A stretch of DNA of 21,218 nt from a virus (taxonomy: Duplodnaviria > Heunggongvirae > Uroviricota > Caudoviricetes): positions 1 through 21,218 of IMG/VR virus record IMGVR_UViG_2547132270_000005. One strand, given 5' to 3'. Both the position numbers and the translations under genes were made by a program. Below the pieces are notes generated by a model. That model searched no databases. It had not been told where the DNA came from and saw only the letters and a list, made by a program, of their open reading frames with translations. Shown in pieces: positions 1,868 to 9,094 of this stretch. Position 1 is the first letter of the stretch. Each line of letters opens with the position of its first letter.

Positions 1868-2135
1868 CCTTCCCGACTTGCTGAATGTGGCGTTATGCAC
1901 GGTTATTGTGCTGACGCTCTTTTTTTATCGTCGCCGTGATTCCAGACATAAACCGCTGATGTCATGGCTGGCCTGGCTGCTGATGCTGCTTTATGCCTTT
2001 GCACCACTCAGCTATCTGTGCGGTCGCCCGTTAGCGGCGAACTGGCTGGCGGTGGGGCTTAATCTGCTGTTCTGCGTGTTGGTGATTCGCGCACGTGGGA
2101 ACGTTTCAAAAATCTTTGTATTACGAAGGCGCTGA
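1857..2135 (+). CDS. Second lysis-cassette membrane protein (about 92 aa; holin or antiholin-like)
   Basis: RBS GGAGGAGG precedes the ATG at 1857 (track ORF begins at 1851). Three hydrophobic stretches. The stop lies 2 nt before the endolysin start. Confidence 0.5.
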   Translation: MLSNLPDLLNVALCTVIVLTLFFYRRRDSRHKPLMSWLAWLLMLLYAFAPLSYLCGRPLAANWLAVGLNLLFCVLVIRARGNVSKIFVLRRR

Positions 2136-2136
2136 T

Positions 2137-2682
2137 ATGAAGTCGAAAGATGAAATTTTTGACGAAGTTCTGGGAAAAGAGGGCGGTTACGTCAATCACC
2201 CGGATGATAAAGGCGGACCGACAAAATGGGGTATTACGGAAAAAGTCGCCCGCGCTCACGGATATCAGGGCGATATGCGTGACCTGACACGCGAACAGGC
2301 GCTGGAAATCCTTGAGGCGGATTACTGGTTCGGACCACGCTTTGATCAGGTGGCCGCATTATCCTCTGATATTGCTGCAGAGTTGTGTGATACCGGTGTG
2401 AATATGGGGCCGTCCGTAGCATCGAAAATGCTCCAACGCTGGCTGAACGTTTTCAACCTGCAAGGCAAATTGTTCCCGGATATGGACGCAGACGGGCGTA
2501 TCGGCCCCCGCACGATTAATGCACTACGGACTTATCTGCAAAAACGCGGCAAAGACGGCGAACTGGTGATGCTGAAGGCGCTGAATTGCACGCAGGGCGA
2601 CCGCTATCTGGAGCTGGCAGAAAAACGCGAGGCCAACGAGTCGTTTGTCTACGGCTGGATGAAAGAGCGCGTAGCAGTTTAA
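2137..2682 (+). CDS. Endolysin, glycoside hydrolase family 108-like N-terminal domain with a C-terminal peptidoglycan-binding domain
   Basis: N-terminus DEIFDEVLGKEGGYVNHPDDKGGPTKWGIT matches the conserved GH108 N-terminal pattern (EGG...P.D.GG.T..GIT). The C-terminal region resembles a PG-binding domain. Start chosen at ATG 2137 (RBS GAAGG); the track ORF opens at 2095. Confidence 0.8.
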   Translation: MKSKDEIFDEVLGKEGGYVNHPDDKGGPTKWGITEKVARAHGYQGDMRDLTREQALEILEADYWFGPRFDQVAALSSDIAAELCDTGVNMGPSVASKMLQRWLNVFNLQGKLFPDMDADGRIGPRTINALRTYLQKRGKDGELVMLKALNCTQGDRYLELAEKREANESFVYGWMKERVAV

Positions 2683-2778
2683 AAACTGACGCTGAAGTGC
2701 TGAACACCCTCAACTCACGCAGGCTCTTTTCTGGGGTTACTATGAGCGAAAGTAAGGGGTACAGCATCAGATAGCAAA

Positions 2779-2810
2779 AACCCCGGCTGCTGGAACAGTC
2801 CGGGGTTTTT
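2779..2810 (+). terminator. Rho-independent terminator downstream of the endolysin gene (A-run, CCCCGG...CCGGGG hairpin, T-run)
   Basis: Seen directly: AAAAA-CCCCGGCTGCTGGAACAGTCCGGGG-TTTTT. The flanking A and T tracts could allow function on either strand. Confidence 0.65.
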
Positions 2811-2901
2811 AGTTTTCACGTCAAAGAGGAAATTGTGAGTAGTGAGTACGGAGAAAATCCTCGTGGGAAAGTATAAAAGATTCTTTTTGAGGTTGTCCAT
2901 T

Positions 2902-3015
2902 ATGAAAGGTATTGAAGTGGAAACTCCCGCGAGCCTTGATTTGACAAGGGCTGCGGCCTTTGCAATTCGCCTTGTGGCGGTCGCTGTTCTGATTTGGGCT
3001 GTGCGTTGGTGGTGA
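2902..3015 (+). CDS. Small membrane peptide, 37 aa (MKGIEVETPASLDLTRAAAFAIRLVAVAVLIWAVRWW)
   Basis: ATG start with a C-terminal hydrophobic helix; the stop sits 1 nt before the next ORF. Below the ORF track cutoff. Coding status uncertain. Confidence 0.35.
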   Translation: MKGIEVETPASLDLTRAAAFAIRLVAVAVLIWAVRWW

Positions 3016-3043
3016 TATGAGCCGAAAACACTGGACACACAGA

Positions 3044-3199
3044 ATGCCGCGAGCGGCGGCAAAATGGGCACTGGTAGCGATACTGGTGCCTTTTTTATTG
3101 GTGGGATGCGTTAGCCTGGATAAGGCGCGCCAGCTTTTCGATACCGCGTCTCAGGTCTGTCAGCTTATTGATGGCGTTCGACGGTGTACGCAGAACTGA
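3044..3199 (+). CDS. Small lipoprotein (signal peptide with lipobox LVGC; about 29-aa mature peptide); possible o-spanin-like, entericidin-like or exclusion lipoprotein
   Basis: From Met at 3044: positively charged n-region (MPRAAAK), hydrophobic core (WALVAILVPFLL), lipobox L-V-G-C. The track ORF begins at 3017. Confidence 0.5.
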   Translation: MPRAAAKWALVAILVPFLLVGCVSLDKARQLFDTASQVCQLIDGVRRCTQN

Positions 3200-3207
3200 T
3201 CACCAGC

Positions 3208-3244
3208 ATTATCGCAGCCCTTCAGTGTGAGGGGCTGCGATAAT
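3208..3244. repeat. Perfect 13-bp inverted repeat (ATTATCGCAGCCC ... GGGCTGCGATAAT) with an 11-nt loop
   Basis: Seen directly, immediately after the lipoprotein stop codon. No U-tract follows, so it is not a canonical intrinsic terminator. Confidence 0.6.
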
Positions 3245-3325
3245 GCCAAAGCTCGTTATCAGCACCCGCCACGCACCCAGCGCACTGGCCGATAGCGGGC
3301 TTTTTTATTCATAAAGCGAGTCTGT

Positions 3326-4114
3326 ATGAGCGAGAAATTGAAGATCGTCTATCGCCCTTTACAAGAACTGTCTCCGTATGCACACAACGCCAGAACACAC
3401 AGCCCTGAGCAGGTGGCACAACTGGTAGAAAGCATTAAGCAATTCGGCTGGACTAATCCGGTGCTGATTGATGAAAAGGGCGAAATTATTGCGGGTCACG
3501 GTCGCGTTATGGCGGCTGAAGTGCTCAAAATGGATTCCATTCCGGTCATCGTTCTGTCTGGTCTGACGGATGATCAGAAAAAGGCGTACCGCCTGGCAGA
3601 TAATCGCCTGCCGATGAATGCTGGCTGGGATGAAGAGCTGTTACGGATGGAGCTGTCGGACCTAATCAATGCTGATTTTGATGTCTCCCTGACAGGCTTC
3701 AGCCCGACAGAAATTGATGAACTGTTGACGGATGTTTTGCCCGGTACAGGAAATGAGGAGGAGCCGTATACGACGAAAATTGATACGCCTGTTTATGAGC
3801 CGTCGGGCGGTAAACCGGATATCAGTGAACTGTACGACGATACGAAAACTCAGAAGTTGATCAGCCGGATACGTTCGGCGTCCCTTGATCCTGATATTGA
3901 GAAATTCCTCCTGTGTGCGGCAGAACGTCACACGGTGTTTAATTTCAGCAGAATTGCGGACTATTACGCTCACGCCCCTGCTGAAATTCAGTGCCTTTTC
4001 GAGGAGTCGGCGCTGGTGATCATTGATTATCAGCAGGCTATTGAAAATGGATTTGTCCGGATGACGCAGCGCATGGTGGAGATCATGCATGGCGGGGAGG
4101 AGGAATATGCGTGA
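3326..4114 (+). CDS. ParB-like (ParB/Srx fold) nuclease-domain protein, 262 aa
   Basis: The N-terminal roughly 100 aa (YRPLQELSPYAHNARTHSPEQVAQLVESIKQFGWTNPVLIDEKGEIIAGHGRVMAA...) fits the ParB N-terminal domain pattern, including the GxGR-type motif. The C-terminal half is unassigned. Confidence 0.7.
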   Translation: MSEKLKIVYRPLQELSPYAHNARTHSPEQVAQLVESIKQFGWTNPVLIDEKGEIIAGHGRVMAAEVLKMDSIPVIVLSGLTDDQKKAYRLADNRLPMNAGWDEELLRMELSDLINADFDVSLTGFSPTEIDELLTDVLPGTGNEEEPYTTKIDTPVYEPSGGKPDISELYDDTKTQKLISRIRSASLDPDIEKFLLCAAERHTVFNFSRIADYYAHAPAEIQCLFEESALVIIDYQQAIENGFVRMTQRMVEIMHGGEEEYA

Positions 4115-5039
4115 TGATTTTTGCGCCTTTATTCTGACTCACGGGCGACCGGACAAAGTTCTGACTTACCGGACGTTGCGTCGTGCTGGCTATACCGGGA
4201 AAATTTTTATCGTTGTTGATGATGAAGATAAGACACGGCATCAGTACATGGCTGAATTTGGTGAACAGGTGCTGGTGTTTTCCAAAGCCGATATCGCCAG
4301 TCGTTTTGACGAAGCCGATAATTTCGGTGACCGGCGCTCAATTTTTTACGCCCGTAATGCCTGTTTCGACCTGGCAAAACTGGTCGGGTGTAAATACTTC
4401 ATTCAGCTCGATGATGATTATCACGAGTTCCAGTTTCGGGTGGATCGCAACTATGACCAGGCCTATTTTCCGATAAGGAAACTGGATGCGATCCTTTCTG
4501 AAATGCTGGCGTATTACGAATCAATACCCGCGCTTTCCATCGCTATGTCGCAGGGCGGGGATTTTCTTGGTGACAATGGCGGCCATGCTTCGTGGGTGAA
4601 ACGCAAGGCAATGAACAGCTTTATCTGTTCGGTTGATCGACCGTTCTCATTCATGGGGCGCATTAACGAGGATGTGAATACGTACACGAATCTCGGTCGC
4701 CGTGGTGAATTGTTTATGACGATCGGTGCTGTCCAGTTAGGGCAGAAACAGACGCAGAAAAACAGCGGCGGAATGACCGAGCTGTATCTGGATTCCGGAA
4801 CCTATGTTAAAAGTTTTTACTCCGTCATGCATGCGCCGTCGTGCGTAAAAATCTCACTGATGGGCGCCAGCCATAAACGCATTCACCATCAGGTCACCTG
4901 GAACAACGCTGCAGTAAAAATCCTTCACGAAAAATACAGGAAGAAGACACCCTGCATATCAATGGGGGTGACAAATGATTCCGTATTCGAAAGTCGAGTC
5001 TCTGGCAGCGTGCCGGATGACTGCACAACAAATCGCTGA
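4107..5039 (+). CDS. Hypothetical enzyme, possibly glycosyltransferase-A-like (acidic motifs IFIVVDDED and IQLDDDYHEF)
   Basis: RBS GGAGGAGG before the ATG at 4107 (track ORF opens at 4089); the ParB-like stop falls inside its first codons. Motif spacing resembles the GT-A/GT2 DxD arrangement. No PP-loop or methyltransferase motifs were seen. Function is inference only. Confidence 0.55.
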   Translation: MRDDFCAFILTHGRPDKVLTYRTLRRAGYTGKIFIVVDDEDKTRHQYMAEFGEQVLVFSKADIASRFDEADNFGDRRSIFYARNACFDLAKLVGCKYFIQLDDDYHEFQFRVDRNYDQAYFPIRKLDAILSEMLAYYESIPALSIAMSQGGDFLGDNGGHASWVKRKAMNSFICSVDRPFSFMGRINEDVNTYTNLGRRGELFMTIGAVQLGQKQTQKNSGGMTELYLDSGTYVKSFYSVMHAPSCVKISLMGASHKRIHHQVTWNNAAVKILHEKYRKKTPCISMGVTNDSVFESRVSGSVPDDCTTNR

Positions 5040-5226
5040 CGTTCTGGATGTTGATCTGAACCGGTTGAAAGAAAATCGGGAAGCAATGACAAATTTTTAC
5101 GCGTCCATCCGTAAGGGCAGAGCGAAAGGTGAAGCCGAGCTACGGGCGGCATTGTTTAAGCTTGCCAGAAAAGGGGATGCCTTTGCCCTGCGCGAACTAC
5201 TCAGGGTGGATAAAAATCAGGATTAA
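4975..5226 (+). CDS. Small helix-turn-helix-like DNA-binding protein (83 aa)
   Basis: Segment MTAQQIADVLDVDLNRL looks like an HTH. Overlaps the 3' end of the upstream gene by about 65 nt; ends 4 nt before the terminase small subunit start. Confidence 0.45.
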   Translation: MIPYSKVESLAACRMTAQQIADVLDVDLNRLKENREAMTNFYASIRKGRAKGEAELRAALFKLARKGDAFALRELLRVDKNQD

Positions 5227-5229
5227 CTG

Positions 5230-6321
5230 ATGAGCAGACCGGACTGGGGGGCGTTGCAGCAGGAGTATATTGCTGAATACACCCGCTCCGGTATATCTCC
5301 GGTGGCATGGTGTGAAGCAAGGGGACTGAATTACGCAACAGCCCGTCGTTACATCAAAAAACCTCCGAAAAATGCGCAGACAGAAGTGCGCAAAACTGCG
5401 CAAAAAAGTGCGCAGAAAAAATCTGCGCAGACTGCGCAAAAGCGGAACGAAAAATCTCAGAAAAAAAAGCCAGTATCCGATGCGTGCCTGAATGAGGTCG
5501 ACGCGGAGGAATTTTCGTTCTGTCCCGATGAATTCGGCATTTCTGACCAGCAGGCAAAATTCGCCATGCTGGTTGCGCAGGGTAAAAACCTCATCGAGGC
5601 ATACTGCCTAGCGGGTTACGAGGGAACGGGAAACGTAGCAAGTGCCGCAGCCTCACGTCTGTTAAGAAATGTTAAGGTTTATCGGGCTATCTCATGGTTC
5701 CGCAATCAGTACCAGAAACGCTATACCGCAGACCTGGATTTACTGGTGAGCCAGTTGATGGCTATTGTCCAGGCCGACCCCAATCAGTTGGCACAATTTC
5801 GCCGTGTTAACTGCCGTTATTGCTGGGGCGAGAATCACCTCTACCAGTGGCGTGACATTGCAGAATTCGATAAGGCAGCGGCACAGGCCTCCAGAGATGG
5901 CAAACCCGAACCGGAATATGGTGGCCTCGGCTTTGTTGATAACGCCATACCCAATCCGGACTGCCCGAAGTGCTGCGGTGAGGGAACGGGGCAGCTTTAT
6001 ATGGCTGATACCACTCTGCTTGATGGGGATGCTCGGCAATTATATGCAGGGGCAAAGCTCGGAAAATTCGGCGTTGAGATCCTGCTGGAGGATAAGGCTG
6101 CCGCCCGGCGCGAACTTATCAAGCTGATAATGGCGACGAAAGGAAGTTCTGCTGGTGGTGCAACTGACAGTCGCAATGATCTGGAGCTTGAAGGACTGAG
6201 GCTTCGCAATGAAAAGCTGCGCACTGAGATTGAAAACCTCAAAAAAGGCGTGGGTGGTGAGAATAACGAAATAATTATCCACAACTCTCTGCCGATGCCG
6301 GGAGTGGATAATGTCGATTGA
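5230..6321 (+). CDS. Terminase small subunit (N-terminal HTH, central terminase small-subunit-like region, Cys-rich segment)
   Basis: N-terminal HTH (VAWCEARGLNYATARRYI), a central region resembling terminase small subunits (AKFAMLVAQGKNLIEAYCLAGY), and CRYCWGENH...CPKCCGEG suggesting a zinc ribbon. Lies immediately upstream of the large subunit. Confidence 0.75.
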   Translation: MSRPDWGALQQEYIAEYTRSGISPVAWCEARGLNYATARRYIKKPPKNAQTEVRKTAQKSAQKKSAQTAQKRNEKSQKKKPVSDACLNEVDAEEFSFCPDEFGISDQQAKFAMLVAQGKNLIEAYCLAGYEGTGNVASAAASRLLRNVKVYRAISWFRNQYQKRYTADLDLLVSQLMAIVQADPNQLAQFRRVNCRYCWGENHLYQWRDIAEFDKAAAQASRDGKPEPEYGGLGFVDNAIPNPDCPKCCGEGTGQLYMADTTLLDGDARQLYAGAKLGKFGVEILLEDKAAARRELIKLIMATKGSSAGGATDSRNDLELEGLRLRNEKLRTEIENLKKGVGGENNEIIIHNSLPMPGVDNVD

Positions 6322-7639
6322 AATCTACCTCCCAAAACCTCATGAGGGGCAAATAGCTGCATGGACGGCGGCAATAGAGGAACGCTTCCACGCGGTATGC
6401 TGTGGTCGTCGCTGGGGTAAAACGGTGATGCTGGTGAACATCGCTACCAGTTTCGCGACGCGGAAATTTGCCGTTCCTACCACCGGGCAGCTTATCGCGG
6501 GTAGGGTGGGGATTTTTACCGCACAATACCGCCAGTACCAGGAAATCTGGGATGAAATTAGCGCCGTTCTGCAACCGCTGATCCTCAGTCAGTCAAAAAA
6601 TGAAAAGCGCATCATTCTCCGTAATGGGGGGCGCATCGACTTTTGGGTAACGGACAACAACAAACTGGCCGGGCGTGGGCGTAAATATCACGCTGTGCTG
6701 ATTGATGAGGCAGCATTCACTAAATCGCCGGAAATGCTCGAGGAAATCTGGCCCCGAGCGATACGCCCGACGCTTGTCGATTACCGCGGCTGTGCGTGGG
6801 TATTTTCCACACCAAACGGTATCGACGAGAGCAATTTTTTCTACGCGATATGCCACGATGAATCCCTGGGATTTGTCATGCACCATGCGCCAACTTCATC
6901 GAATCCGTATATTCCGAAAGAAGAACTGGAGGAAACGGAGAAGAAATCCGATCCGCGTGTCTGGCAGCAGGAATATCTTGCCGAGTTCGTGGACTGGTCC
7001 AAAGATGCGTTACTCGATGTCGATAAGCTGCTGGTGGACGGTCAGCCGATTGAGATGCCGCCGCACTGCGACATGATTTTCGCAGTGATGGATACGGCGC
7101 TGAAAGGCGGGACCGAAAATGATGGTACTGGCGTGGTGTATTTCGCTTATGAGTCAACGTATTCGGACGAGCCAAAACTGACGATTATTGACTGGGATGT
7201 GACGCAAATTAAAGCGTCATTGCTTCCTGAATATATCCCCGGCGTTTATGACAACCTCGAGCGCCTCGCGAAATTATGCCGTCCGCGTCTGGGCAGCCAG
7301 GGAATTTTTATGGAAGACGCCGCGATGGGGGCAATTCTCAACCAGAAGGCGGAAACCGAAGGCTGGGATATGACGCCGATTAAATCGGCACTAACCAGCA
7401 AGGGCAAAGACGAACGGGCGGTGATAGCATCCAGCTACCACTATCAGGGGATGTGCAAAATCGTCCGGGAGGCTTACGACAAGACCGTTTCATTCAAACG
7501 CACCACCGCAAACCACCTCATAAAACAAATCGCCGGGTTCCACCTGGCAGACAAAGACGCGCATAAACGTGCTGATGACCTTTTCGATTGTTATACCTAT
7601 GGATTGATCATCGCGCACGGTAATTACGCGGCGTTGTAA
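6311..7639 (+). CDS. Terminase large subunit (ATPase plus nuclease)
   Basis: Walker A-like CCGRRWGKT near the N-terminus, Walker B-like VLIDEAAF, and a C-terminal acidic nuclease-like region (AVMDTALKGG...DGTGVVYFAY). Start overlaps the small subunit stop. Confidence 0.85.
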   Translation: MSIEIYLPKPHEGQIAAWTAAIEERFHAVCCGRRWGKTVMLVNIATSFATRKFAVPTTGQLIAGRVGIFTAQYRQYQEIWDEISAVLQPLILSQSKNEKRIILRNGGRIDFWVTDNNKLAGRGRKYHAVLIDEAAFTKSPEMLEEIWPRAIRPTLVDYRGCAWVFSTPNGIDESNFFYAICHDESLGFVMHHAPTSSNPYIPKEELEETEKKSDPRVWQQEYLAEFVDWSKDALLDVDKLLVDGQPIEMPPHCDMIFAVMDTALKGGTENDGTGVVYFAYESTYSDEPKLTIIDWDVTQIKASLLPEYIPGVYDNLERLAKLCRPRLGSQGIFMEDAAMGAILNQKAETEGWDMTPIKSALTSKGKDERAVIASSYHYQGMCKIVREAYDKTVSFKRTTANHLIKQIAGFHLADKDAHKRADDLFDCYTYGLIIAHGNYAAL

Positions 7640-7657
7640 AAAATCAGGATATTTTTG

Positions 7658-9094
7658 ATGGCAGAGATCGAGATTACTGGCGGCCTCGGTTCAGCACTGA
7701 TGCATATTCTTGAGGCTGAAGAAATTCAGCCGGGAACCGACATTGGCTATGAATTGTGTAAGCAGCTGTGGCAATTCCATCCTCTGGGCGGAAAACTTGT
7801 CGAAAAACCCATACTGATGGCGATGTGTAAGCCGCGCCAGTATAACGTGGAAACCGACCCTGACGAACGGGTTGTGCGGCGTTTCCAGGAGGTGTGGGAG
7901 CGCATGAAGGTGAACGAGAAGATTAAAAATCTGTTTTTTCTCTCTCGTTGCTACGGTGCTGCAGCGATCGGCGTGGGCACCGACAGTGTTTCATGTCGTG
8001 AGCCGCTTCCGACATTCGGGCTGACAGAAGAGGATGTGTATATCAACGCGTGGGATCCGTTGAACGCTTCCGGTTCGATGGTGACTGACCAGAACCCAAA
8101 CAGTCCGTTTTTCCAGGAAGCCAATAAAAAGCTAAAGATTGGCGGAAAAGACTGGCATCCGTCACGCACGTTGAAAATTTTCAACGGCACACCGATTTAT
8201 CTGGAGTTTCAGAGTTCATCGTTCGGATTCACCGGGCGAAGCGTGTTTCAGCGAGTTCTTTATTCCCTGAAATCCTATATCAACACGATGGAGGCGAATG
8301 ATCTCGTCAGTCAGAAAGCGGGCGTACTGGTAGCTAAAGTTGTGCAGAACGGTTCGAAACTTGACGGGATCATGGCTGCCGCCACGGGACGAAAAAGGGA
8401 AAATGTCAAAGAGGCAAAAAATAAAGGTGTGCTTAGTATCGGGAAGGATGAGGACGTTACCTCGCTGAATTTACAAAACATCGATGGCGCGCTAAATGCC
8501 GCCCGCGACAACATTATTTCCGATATTGCATCAGGTAGCGATGTTCCCGCGATTCTCATCAAGGAGGAGGCTTTCTCGAATGGTTTCGGTGAAGGAACTG
8601 AGGATTCGAAAGCTATCAGCCAGTATATCGATGGTGTACGCCAGCAGATTGAACCTGTGATGGATTATTTCGAACGCCTGGTGCAGTACATCGCCTGGAA
8701 CGAGGAATTTTATCAGTCGCTGAAAAATGATTACCCGGACATCATAACCGACGACTATAAAACCACGTTTTACCAGTGGCGACGTGAATTTACCGCGACG
8801 TGGCAGGAGCTGGTTGAGGAGTCGCCGGACAAACGCCGGGAAAGCGACAGTAAAGTGATTCAACAGGCGATAGCACTTTTCTCTGCCGTGTCGCCACAGG
8901 TTGATCCTGAAAACCGCGCTGCCGTCACTGAATGGCTGGCAAGTCTTGTTAATGCCACGCAAACCTATGGCGAAGCTCCACTCATCATTGATGTGGACGC
9001 GCTGGCGAATTATGAACCACCGAAGCAGGAGACGCCTGATGGCAATTTCCAGCCGGGCGGTGAGGAAGAAGAAACGGATCAGGACGCTGTATGA
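7658..9094 (+). CDS. Portal protein (putative)
   Basis: About 479 aa, directly downstream of the terminase large subunit, acidic C-terminus. Called from position and size; no motif-level confirmation. Confidence 0.65.
   Translation: MAEIEITGGLGSALMHILEAEEIQPGTDIGYELCKQLWQFHPLGGKLVEKPILMAMCKPRQYNVETDPDERVVRRFQEVWERMKVNEKIKNLFFLSRCYGAAAIGVGTDSVSCREPLPTFGLTEEDVYINAWDPLNASGSMVTDQNPNSPFFQEANKKLKIGGKDWHPSRTLKIFNGTPIYLEFQSSSFGFTGRSVFQRVLYSLKSYINTMEANDLVSQKAGVLVAKVVQNGSKLDGIMAAATGRKRENVKEAKNKGVLSIGKDEDVTSLNLQNIDGALNAARDNIISDIASGSDVPAILIKEEAFSNGFGEGTEDSKAISQYIDGVRQQIEPVMDYFERLVQYIAWNEEFYQSLKNDYPDIITDDYKTTFYQWRREFTATWQELVEESPDKRRESDSKVIQQAIALFSAVSPQVDPENRAAVTEWLASLVNATQTYGEAPLIIDVDALANYEPPKQETPDGNFQPGGEEEETDQDAV

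Follow-up and report, generated by a model that had tools for sequence, protein, structure and literature searches.

What do two overlapping genes do that lie directly ahead of the DNA-packaging genes of a Rac-like E. coli prophage, the first encoding a ParB-like protein and the second a putative sugar transferase? The window, meaning the whole stretch of DNA analysed here, comprises 21,218 nucleotides (positions 1 to 21,218 of the Caudoviricetes record IMGVR_UViG_2547132270_000005). A preliminary description, made from its sequence, had proposed a ParB/Srx-fold protein translationally coupled to a GT-A-like enzyme and followed by a small HTH protein, and had regarded this as an unfamiliar combination that could serve in DNA or protein modification (anti-restriction) or in packaging. 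All three open reading frames were confirmed on the plus strand (Table 1). The start codon of the transferase gene agrees with the PGAP start in related genomes, and its overlap with the ParB gene amounts to 8 nt (ATGCGTGA, 4107-4114), lies behind the GGAGGA motif and is conserved, in keeping with the proposed coupling. The terminase genes are part of the same tightly packed gene string, with a gap of 3 nt and an overlap of 11 nt between consecutive genes. Upstream of the pair two strong hairpins can be formed, first a perfect 19-bp stem and then a 13-bp stem with a T-run. Between them and the ParB start a promoter scan revealed no sigma-70-like promoter, nor was any promoter convincing for independent expression of the pair, and Rfam and tRNA scans of the region upstream of the pair gave nothing above threshold. 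No promoter of its own was thus detected for the pair, and its place is in the late operon, which is not expressed by a lysogen.

Table 1: Features of the pair and its surroundings (positions in the window).
Feature	Position	Strand	Evidence or detail
Two strong hairpins, lysis cassette to ParB gene (context)	3206..3310	+	RNA fold -57.3 kcal/mol, z = -6.4
ParB-like partner, 262 aa, homologue of full-length ynaK	3326..4114	+	Pfam ParB_N, phrog_620, AlphaFold/Foldseek, ynaK annotation in E. coli genomes
ParB/Srx nucleotide-binding domain and helix-helix segment (residues 1-140)	3326..3745	+	similarity to phage DNA methyltransferase N-termini; conserved pocket
Linker motif and acidic helical C-terminal domain (residues ~141-255)	3746..4111	+	directly upstream of transferase gene in 127/127 loci
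Coupling junction	4097..4114	+	GGAGGA ribosome-binding site 4097-4102, ATG 4107, ParB stop TGA 4112-4114; read from sequence
TAGT-family GT-A glycosyltransferase, 310 aa	4107..5039	+	Pfam PF20691, phrog_842, GT-A fold
83-aa basic HTH-like protein	4975..5226	+	phrog_309 'terminase small subunit' positions 145-218, E=2.5e-22
Terminase subunits, small 5230-6321 and large 6311-7639 (context)	5230..7639	+	Pfam Terminase_2, Terminase_6N; phrog_51, phrog_2

The second protein belongs to the TAGT family of sugar-nucleotide transferases and is of the GT-A, DxD type. It matches Pfam PF20691 (TAGT, "TET-associated glycosyltransferase") with 124.7 bits (cutoff 27.5, E=6.1e-36) over profile positions 4-205 of 205 and phrog_842 with E=5e-103, and its homologues likewise carry PF20691. 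Since the association with TET is a contextual feature and no sequence criterion, this membership stands; PGAP names the protein 'GREB1-related protein'. The GT-A call had been made from the two acidic motifs IFIVVDDED (residues 33-41) and IQLDDDYHEF (residues 99-108), and it was borne out by PF20691 and by the AlphaFold model, in which DDED and DDD follow directly on strands 32-38 and 97-101 in a GT-A-like manner. In Foldseek all PDB fold matches of the model were GT-A transferases and the BFVD matches were TAGT proteins (TM 0.70-0.77 against viral TAGT models), so that neither profile nor structure searches led to a non-transferase family. A sequence search of the PDB gave no significant match, and no NCBIfam model or PADLOC defence system was matched. 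As had been stated before, the protein lacks a PP-loop and DNA methyltransferase motifs, for which there was no Pfam, NCBIfam or PADLOC match. The acidic residues assumed to be catalytic are indeed conserved, with D38, D41 and D102-D104 kept in 49-52 of 52 diverse homologues; only the numbering 'D39/D40' used previously is off by one, as the motif reads D38 D39 E40 D41. Further invariant positions are Q149-G-D152, R166-K167, NEDVN187-191 and H260-H261. The transferase is basic (median pI 8.8 across homologues), and its subfamily possesses a conserved extra C-terminal region (residues ~223-285) past the end of the Pfam model, followed by a lineage-specific extension of ~22 final residues. AlphaFold assigns low confidence to this conserved C-terminal third as well as to the linker motif of the partner.

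The ParB/Srx fold of the first protein was recovered with Pfam ParB_N (28.2 bits, cutoff 26.3), with phrog_620 (E=1.5e-89) and with Foldseek, where the AlphaFold model matched CTP/CDP-bound ParB, Noc, PadC, KorB and sulfiredoxin. The protein consists of a nucleotide-binding ParB/Srx domain, a helical hairpin, a disordered linker and a conserved C-terminal domain (helices 103-134, low confidence 136-157 and helical 166-255 in the model). Its residues 1-140 show 45-54% identity to the N-termini of phage DNA methyltransferases and match PADLOC MTase_II with E=2.6e-38 and phrog_498 with E=3e-51. Among 42 diverse and very divergent transferase-coupled partners, 37-42 retain the pocket residues N21, R23, S36, G57, R60 and N93, GHGR takes the place of GERR, and no HTH DNA-binding domain was found in Pfam and NCBIfam searches. 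The linker carries the motif Y-T-x-K-I-x-x-P-x-Y-x-P, and among 52 sequences Y148, P155, Y157, L195, R201, A211, Y214, E226, I232, D234 and A238 are invariant in the C-terminal part. The C-terminal domain itself (~110 aa) is acidic while the transferase is basic, as seen across 52 homologues, and it falls into about 1010 clusters at 50% identity; sequence searches revealed no Pfam and no PDB relative of it. It also occurs as a stand-alone protein of ~130 aa at loci L106, L111, L120 and L127 and in Vibrio phage pv27. The ParB nucleotide-binding domain is fused to it in ~80% of diverse loci and is missing from about one locus in five. The transferase thus has this C-terminal domain as its obligate partner and not the ParB domain, which is absent from some loci, and the conserved domain of ~110 aa tied to a TAGT subfamily is the new point of the present work.

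The neighbourhood survey took in 127 loci at which the transferase gene was complete and was preceded by 420 nt of DNA or more, and in every one of them a gene with the partner C-terminal domain lies directly upstream. Co-occurrence of the two genes is thus near-absolute and the arrangement is far beyond chance. The loci are spread over Proteobacteria, Bacteroidota, Firmicutes, Actinobacteria and one archaeal virus (a halovirus), and the overlap of the two genes is conserved across phyla (8 nt in 91 and 11 nt in 23 of the 127). The two genes were counted in 996 and 994 E. coli genomes, and the pair is present in about 18% of complete genomes of this species. A large terminase gene follows within three genes downstream in at least 29 of about 48 distant loci, with families Terminase_6N, Terminase_3 and GpA, and at locus L138 the terminase is of the TerL_ATPase type; altogether the terminases that follow the pair fall into at least four unrelated families. 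This position could simply be a tolerance site for accessory genes. In the Rac prophage of K-12 all but 254 nt of the partner gene are gone, and K-12 ynaK is the remnant of the first gene of the pair. Inducible prophages with the module also occur, for example in E. coli W, where it lies around 1,520,643-1,522,737 of NC_017635. In the T4-like Vibrio phage pv27 the domain-only partner and the transferase lie among replication genes, and the 100 kb examined of its 191 kb also contain a thymidylate synthase gene adjoining a DHFR gene, a dNMP kinase gene and a PurZ-like gene.

ParB-like NTPase genes next to genes for nucleic-acid-modifying enzymes are found in DpdA/DpdB and IbrA/IbrB, with a transglycosylase or a PAPS-reductase-like protein as enzyme, but these systems have other catalytic partners and chemistry and belong to host defence or regulation and not to phage late operons. 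The combination is less unfamiliar than it had appeared, as the second protein is no orphan and ParB-like proteins of phages have already been connected with DNA-modifying enzymes in the literature (PMC13229309; also a passage of PMC8256090 that cites Aravind and co-workers). In the literature searched, which did not comprise the founding paper of the family (Iyer et al., NAR 2013), we found no study of a ParB-TAGT pair without a dioxygenase. The closest sequence relatives of partner residues 1-140 are the phage fusions of ParB_N to DNA N6/N4 methyltransferases, for which several phage records have the matching region in the first 1 kb of the genome. In these fusions the ParB and catalytic domains form one protein and a methyl group is transferred, whereas in the prophage it sits on an adaptor-like domain and a separate catalytic protein transfers a glycosyl group. 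A second parallel is ParB176/5mYOX176 (O'Toole et al., PNAS 2026, PMC13229309), a ParB-like protein encoded beside a post-replicative DNA-modifying enzyme and often near terminase genes, where the thymine dioxygenase 5mYOX176 requires ParB176 as activator to act on dsDNA. ParB176 has the same layout as the prophage partner, in which the nucleotide-binding domain is followed by a short helical segment, a disordered linker and a C-terminal domain and a DNA-binding domain is lacking, and its pocket residues N-x-R, S, R and N are also kept. The client of ParB176 is an Fe/2OG dioxygenase, whereas that of the prophage partner is a glycosyltransferase, and no dioxygenase was found.

On the side of the transferase, the T2/T6 beta-glucosyl-HMC-alpha-glucosyltransferase is the biochemically known member of Pfam TAGT; it shares PF20691, the GT-A fold and the DxD motif and acts on phage DNA after replication (PMC13216743, PMC13390438). 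It transfers a second glucose onto the glucose already present on 5-hmC, and the hmC is made by the phage before replication. No ParB-like partner has been described for it, in contrast to the prophage subfamily with its obligate partner and extra C-terminal region, and T-even-type homologues from Aeromonas T4-like phages show only 23-25% identity to the prophage transferase. Glycosylation of 5hmC DNA by GT-A phage transferases has also been reported (bioRxiv 10.1101/2023.12.21.572611). According to the literature the base-J glucosyltransferase (JGT) and GREB1 belong to the same GT-A superfamily (PMC6163654); both come from eukaryotes, JGT depends on JBP for its 5-hmU, and the target of GREB1 is a protein (PMC7968844).

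In 42 kb of a complete related prophage no TET/5mYOX or thymidylate-synthase-like/hydroxymethylase gene is annotated, and the same holds for TET/5mYOX and thymidylate-synthase-like genes within 10 kb of the pair at loci L138 and L140. TET/JBP is not among the commonest neighbour families listed for 48 distant loci, a list that leaves room for single occurrences. To our knowledge, phage DNA glycosylation occurs only on hydroxymethyl or hydroxy pyrimidines that are made by the phage itself, and a hydroxyl such as serves all DNA glycosyltransferases characterised so far that we are aware of is lacking from ordinary DNA. As no enzyme for 5-hydroxymethyl or 5-hydroxy pyrimidines was found in the prophage, the acceptor would have to belong to ordinary DNA, or it is not DNA.

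We consider it somewhat better than even, with a probability of about 55%, that the pair is a two-protein DNA glycosyltransferase, produced along with terminase late in the lytic cycle. The acidic C-terminal domain of the partner would bind the basic transferase and thereby complete or regulate it. The ParB/Srx nucleotide-binding domain would probably load or hold the transferase on double-stranded DNA, a role that parallels the ParB-methyltransferase fusions and the ParB-like activators of phage thymine dioxygenases. Replicated phage DNA might then receive a sugar from an NDP-sugar, either ahead of packaging or in the course of it, and DNA glycosylated in this way might be seen differently by host nucleases and other DNA-binding proteins. 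In favour of such a glycosyltransferase we count the TAGT score, the GT-A fold, the conserved acidic motifs, the obligate pairing, the late position and the sugar-donor genes at locus L100, where a sugar-1-phosphate nucleotidyltransferase gene and an epimerase/dehydratase gene are fused into the same gene string just upstream of the pair. DNA as substrate is further suggested by the action of the T2/T6 enzyme and of other GT-A phage transferases on DNA, the methyltransferase-like N-terminal domain, the ParB176-like layout, the conserved nucleotide pocket and the combination of basic transferase and acidic domain. Against it we count the missing hydroxylated-base pathway, the lack of a suitable hydroxyl in ordinary DNA, the action of GREB1 on a protein, the ParB domain being dispensable in about 1 in 5 diverse loci, the low confidence of the models in the C-terminal third of the transferase and in the linker motif, and the chance that the place beside terminase is only a tolerance site. 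Concerning the acceptor, we only tentatively suggest that the sugar is placed on ordinary, non-hydroxymethylated DNA (at an exocyclic amine, a ring atom, the backbone or a DNA end), with the domain of ~110 aa as essential subunit and the ParB-type nucleotide switch as loader.

In any case, a conserved member of a DNA-glycosyltransferase family occurs here without any hydroxymethyl pathway and is tied to a dedicated partner domain, usually together with a ParB-type domain. If DNA is indeed modified, this would mean a new acceptor chemistry and an unnoticed DNA modification in many ordinary lambdoid phages, present in prophages of roughly one E. coli genome in six as well as in viruses of bacteria and archaea, which would matter for restriction, CRISPR, phage engineering and artefacts in sequencing. 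The activation of DNA-modifying enzymes by ParB-like proteins, found in 2026, would then cover a second class of enzymes. For the remnant K-12 gene ynaK a likely ancestral role is obtained as well.

A less probable explanation is that the transferase glycosylates a protein and not DNA, the candidates being its own partner, a protein of packaging or of the virion, and one of the host. GREB1, the eukaryotic superfamily member, O-GlcNAcylates a protein (PMC7968844), and the fold matches of the transferase include peptide S-glycosyltransferases and glycogenin, which glucosylates its own tyrosine, although the glycogenin matches reflect the general GT-A fold only. The partner could offer acceptors, as the invariant tyrosines of its Tyr/Thr-rich motif Y148-T-x-K-x-x-x-P-x-Y157-x-P lie in a segment that is modelled with low confidence and is probably flexible, and a protein target would also fit to a prophage in which no hydroxylated base is available. 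However, the terminase, portal and capsid families beside the module vary between loci, which leaves no conserved phage protein as target except the partner itself, and the N-terminal domain of this partner is one common to DNA methyltransferases and dioxygenase activators.

We regard it as unlikely that the pair needs DNA that has already been hydroxymethylated, hydroxylated or sugared by another element, and is otherwise idle or acts on the DNA of other phages in interference or defence. This would be in line with the TAGT family name, with all characterised members using acceptors derived from hydroxymethyl pyrimidines, and with the T4-like Vibrio phage described above; Pyle et al. have put forward that prophage transferases might target the genomes of invaders. 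Yet in temperate-phage contexts where such pathways are lacking both genes have stayed intact across phyla, with 43-57% identity, which argues for a function independent of a rare second element. A role in defence would moreover be difficult for a pair without a promoter of its own in a late operon that is silent in the lysogen, and apart from the shared ParB domain there was no PADLOC defence-system match.

Very improbable, and largely refuted by the co-occurrence, is the view of the ParB-like protein as a packaging or partition factor that marks or organises DNA for terminase or segregates a plasmid prophage next to an unrelated transferase: the pair does lie immediately upstream of terminase genes in many loci and the first gene is labelled 'partitioning protein' in deposited phage records, but neither ParA nor a parS-binding domain is present (TIGR00180 is matched by the N-domain only, with 37.1 bits against a cutoff of 58.45), it is not the ParB domain that is conserved along with the transferase, adjacency with overlapping frames in 127 of 127 loci is no neighbourly coincidence, and K-12 Rac keeps only those 254 nt of the ParB gene.

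Two candidates were rejected. A true partition system (ParABS) would not fit to a neighbourhood without a ParA gene and to a protein without an HTH domain and with GHGR instead of the GERR of the canonical GERRxRA box. Seroconversion or another cell-surface glycosylation was dismissed on account of the ParB-like partner and of a transferase without any membrane or surface-glycosylation family match.

The small protein that had been described as an HTH protein ahead of terminase was found at this position, its reading frame sharing 65 nt with the 3' part of the transferase gene and stopping 3 nt ahead of the small terminase gene. Its HTH character is only suggested, by the phrog_309 match and a weak match to a designed HTH repeat, and a sequence search of the PDB gave nothing significant. 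In the Enterobacterales loci examined it occurs together with the small terminase gene; most of the distant loci lack it, with weak matches only at L097 and L098. As it moves with the terminase genes in Enterobacterales and is mostly missing elsewhere, it is probably a terminase or packaging accessory that stands outside the pair.

The window covers the late region of a lambdoid E. coli prophage of the Rac type. Its DNA at 3200-5300 shows 97-98% identity to many E. coli prophages and induced phages in GenBank, in which the ParB-like gene is annotated as ynaK, 'ParB/Srx family N-terminal domain-containing protein', and the transferase gene, in newer annotations, as 'GREB1-related protein'. The lysis cassette (window 2095-3199) is mosaic, with a GH108 endolysin carrying a PG_binding_3 domain in the window and an M15 peptidase endolysin before the same ParB-transferase-terminase block in the otherwise near-identical prophage of strain HBUT-L (locus L001:18482-19716). 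The portal of that prophage (L001:24453-25889, corresponding to window 7655-9094) bears the PGAP label 'anti-CBASS protein Acb1 family protein', probably an annotation artefact, as well as a match to Pfam Phage_portal_3 (E=5e-13).

Genes of the window from the endolysin to the portal
Feature	Position	Strand	Remark
GH108 endolysin	2095-2682	+	
Lipoprotein-like ORF, 60 aa	3017-3199	+	
ParB-like gene	3326-4114	+	
310-aa transferase gene	4107-5039	+	
83-aa ORF	4975-5226	+	
Small terminase	5230-6321	+	
Large terminase	6311-7639	+	
Portal	7655-9094	+	structural genes beyond

The transferase belongs to Pfam family PF20691 (TAGT; 124.7 bits vs a cutoff of 27.5) and to phrog_842, and all significant PDB fold matches of its model are GT-A glycosyltransferases, which bears out the GT-A identity proposed in the preliminary description; the protein is no orphan but a clear TAGT member. 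The best viral fold matches are 'TET-associated glycosyltransferase' proteins (TM 0.70-0.77). In the model, the two acidic motifs (residues 33-41 and 99-108) come after the second and fourth strands of a Rossmann-like sheet, as in GT-A enzymes, and only the numbering of the first had to be shifted by one, to D38 D39 E40 D41. Otherwise the ORFs had been described accurately, including the ParB/Srx fold, the overlap and the acidic motifs. The best candidate for the transferase start is ATG 4107 after GGAGGA, identical to the PGAP start. Among 52 diverse sequences the invariant residues include D41, D102-D104, Q149, G151, D152, R166, K167 and N187-E-D-V-N191, with D38, H260 and H261 nearly invariant, and several conserved positions fall in a C-terminal region outside the Pfam model. 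The subfamily is remarkably uniform, with 42-57% identity for homologues from Bacteroides, Veillonella, Clostridia, Saccharibacteria, Acidobacteriota, Nocardia and Lactobacillus phages, Vibrio T4-like phages and the archaeal virus HHTV-2, whereas homologues from T4-like Aeromonas phages are only 23-25% identical to the transferase. In PF20691 the biochemically known member, the beta-glucosyl-HMC-alpha-glucosyltransferase of T2/T6, attaches a further glucose to 5-hmC that is already glucosylated in DNA (PMC13216743, PMC13390438), and related GT-A phage enzymes glycosylate 5hmC DNA (bioRxiv 10.1101/2023.12.21.572611).

The ParB-like protein was split into residues 1-140 and 141-262, and each part was searched in 80 viral and 53 genomic loci as well as in annotated phages. 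Wherever sequence was available, the C-terminal part lies directly upstream of the transferase; this applies to 127 of the 127 loci in which the transferase gene is complete and the DNA before it measures at least 420 nt. Co-occurrence of the two genes is near-absolute. The overlap noted at the ParB stop codon amounts to 8 nt in the window, as in 91 of these loci, and to 11 nt in 23. Five loci, including Vibrio phage pv27, encode this partner domain as a stand-alone protein of ~130 aa without the ParB domain. The partner domain, whose invariant residues include Y148, P155, Y157, R201, Y214, E226 and D234, is acidic, with a median pI of 4.5 against 8.8 for the basic transferase. No sequence relative of the domain was found in Pfam or PDB; it comprises ~1010 clusters at 50% identity and is nearly always the C-terminus of 250-300-aa proteins or alone. 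In 5426 complete E. coli genomes, transferase DNA is present in 996, C-terminal-domain DNA in 994 and ParB-domain DNA in 1544; truncated remnants, K-12 ynaK among them, account for the surplus. As ynaK of the K-12 Rac prophage consists of only the first 254 nt of the ParB-like gene (window 3326-3579), followed by ydaY, it is the remnant of a ParB-like partner of a lost glycosyltransferase-terminase block.

The ParB/Srx fold described for the first protein was recovered: the protein scores above the threshold of Pfam ParB_N, a phrog_620 match spans its full length, and CTP/CDP-bound ParB, Noc, PadC, KorB and sulfiredoxin are the structures on which its model can be superposed. This domain is fused to the C-terminal domain in 42 of 51 diverse loci, and the fused N-domains are strongly divergent yet keep N21, R23, S36, G57, R60 and N93, matching CTP-binding/hydrolysis positions given for partition ParBs and for ParB176, the activator of thymine dioxygenase 5mYOX176 (PMC13229309). 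A 2026 study (PMC13229309) shows that phage ParB-like proteins of the same layout as here are required for the action of their cognate thymine dioxygenases on double-stranded DNA, with both end domains needed. In this layout a binding domain is followed by a short helical segment, a disordered linker of ~50 residues and a C-terminal domain, and there is no DNA-binding domain. Residues 1-140 are moreover 45-54% identical to N-terminal domains of phage DNA methyltransferases. Layout and kinship thus link the ParB domain with DNA modification rather than with partition.

A large terminase gene follows within three genes in at least 29 of ~48 distant loci, and these terminases belong to unrelated families (Terminase_6N in 16, Terminase_3 in 11, GpA in 2), to which the metagenomic phage locus L138 adds TerL_ATPase. 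The genes upstream of the pair mostly have replication functions. As no promoter-like site was found in the window between the strong hairpins at 3206-3310 and the ParB start, and all genes from the ParB-like one through the large terminase overlap or lie 3 nt apart, expression with the late genes is indicated. The hairpins, located after the lysis cassette, comprise a perfect 19-bp hairpin and then a 13-bp stem with a T-run (-57.3 kcal/mol, z = -6.4); ~100 nt of this region share 92% identity with part of Actinobacillus phage vB_Apl-pPE4, a phage of a distant host, no Rfam match was found, and they may form a late-operon terminator or an element beside the packaging site. In plasmid pCBA3643-01 of Virgibacillus sp. 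CBA3643 (L100:3581-6846), genes for an NAD-dependent sugar epimerase/dehydratase and a sugar-1-phosphate nucleotidyltransferase precede the pair and are fused to it through overlapping ends. This agrees with a genuine role in sugar transfer, and the phage-plasmid may produce the sugar donor itself.

Because the ParB domain is tied to DNA modification, a late-expressed, two-protein DNA glycosyltransferase explains the pair best (probability roughly 0.55). The enzyme class, the obligate pairing and the gene context are established by the analysis. We infer that the two proteins interact, that DNA is their substrate and, with it, the biological purpose of the pair: the C-terminal domain would bind the basic GT-A enzyme and complete or regulate it, and the ParB domain, where present, would load or retain the transferase on DNA. 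To our knowledge, all characterised DNA glycosyltransferases use a hydroxyl installed beforehand by the phage. Annotation of a complete related prophage shows no TET/JBP or thymidylate-synthase-like gene over 42 kb, nor is one annotated within 10 kb in two further loci (L138, L140), and neither is among the neighbour families common to at least two loci, a list that could miss a single occurrence. The phage in the window installs no such hydroxyl on its DNA; therefore either the acceptor lies in ordinary DNA, a tentative proposal that would imply new chemistry, or something other than DNA is the target. A protein target appears doubtful, even if one eukaryotic relative, GREB1, has a protein as its substrate (PMC7968844) and the invariant tyrosine-containing motif of the partner, in a flexible segment, could be a docking peptide or acceptor. 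It is unlikely that the pair relies on base modifications made by another element or acts in defence. That the ParB-like protein serves partition or packaging beside an unrelated neighbour is highly improbable.

The TAGT family and the idea of ParB-like proteins serving DNA-modifying enzymes were already known. In the searchable literature, whose scope excludes the founding 2013 paper, we found neither the obligate, previously unnamed partner domain of this subfamily, nor the ParB domain as its optional add-on, nor the wide distribution of the pair without any hydroxymethyl-pyrimidine pathway.

For the basic 83-aa protein, the match is to a portion of a 'terminase small subunit' PHROG. It occurs together with the small terminase gene in those Enterobacterales loci that were examined, with only weak matches in two distant loci, and is regarded as a packaging accessory outside the pair. 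Its start abuts the transferase stop in relatives, whose transferases end at ~288 aa with a 4-nt overlap or short gap to the next ORF; in the window the overlap is 65 nt owing to a lineage-specific, non-conserved 22-residue extension of the transferase (SMGVTNDSVFESRVSGSVPDDCTTNR, 4974-5039), which suggests a lost stop codon.

Several single records deserve mention. NZ_CP026085.1 (4.83 Mb), labelled E. coli DH5alpha, contains the complete module at an identity equal to that of the E. coli W derivatives in the same listing, unlike the K-12 records listed, which have the ynaK remnant only, and may be mislabelled. Locus L106 (2970-5117) carries a second, divergent TAGT paralogue just upstream of a domain-only partner and the main transferase, which could permit modification with two sugars, as in T6. 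In L138 (17837-20316), four consecutive GT2-family glycosyltransferase genes after the capsid gene may be a separate virion-glycosylation cassette. The T4-like Vibrio phage pv27, with a domain-only partner and transferase (L142:30930-32042, record 80930-82042), also has a '2-aminooxy adenylosuccinate synthetase' gene (a PurZ-like label) and thymidylate synthase, DHFR and dNMP kinase genes, and its DNA may carry other base changes.
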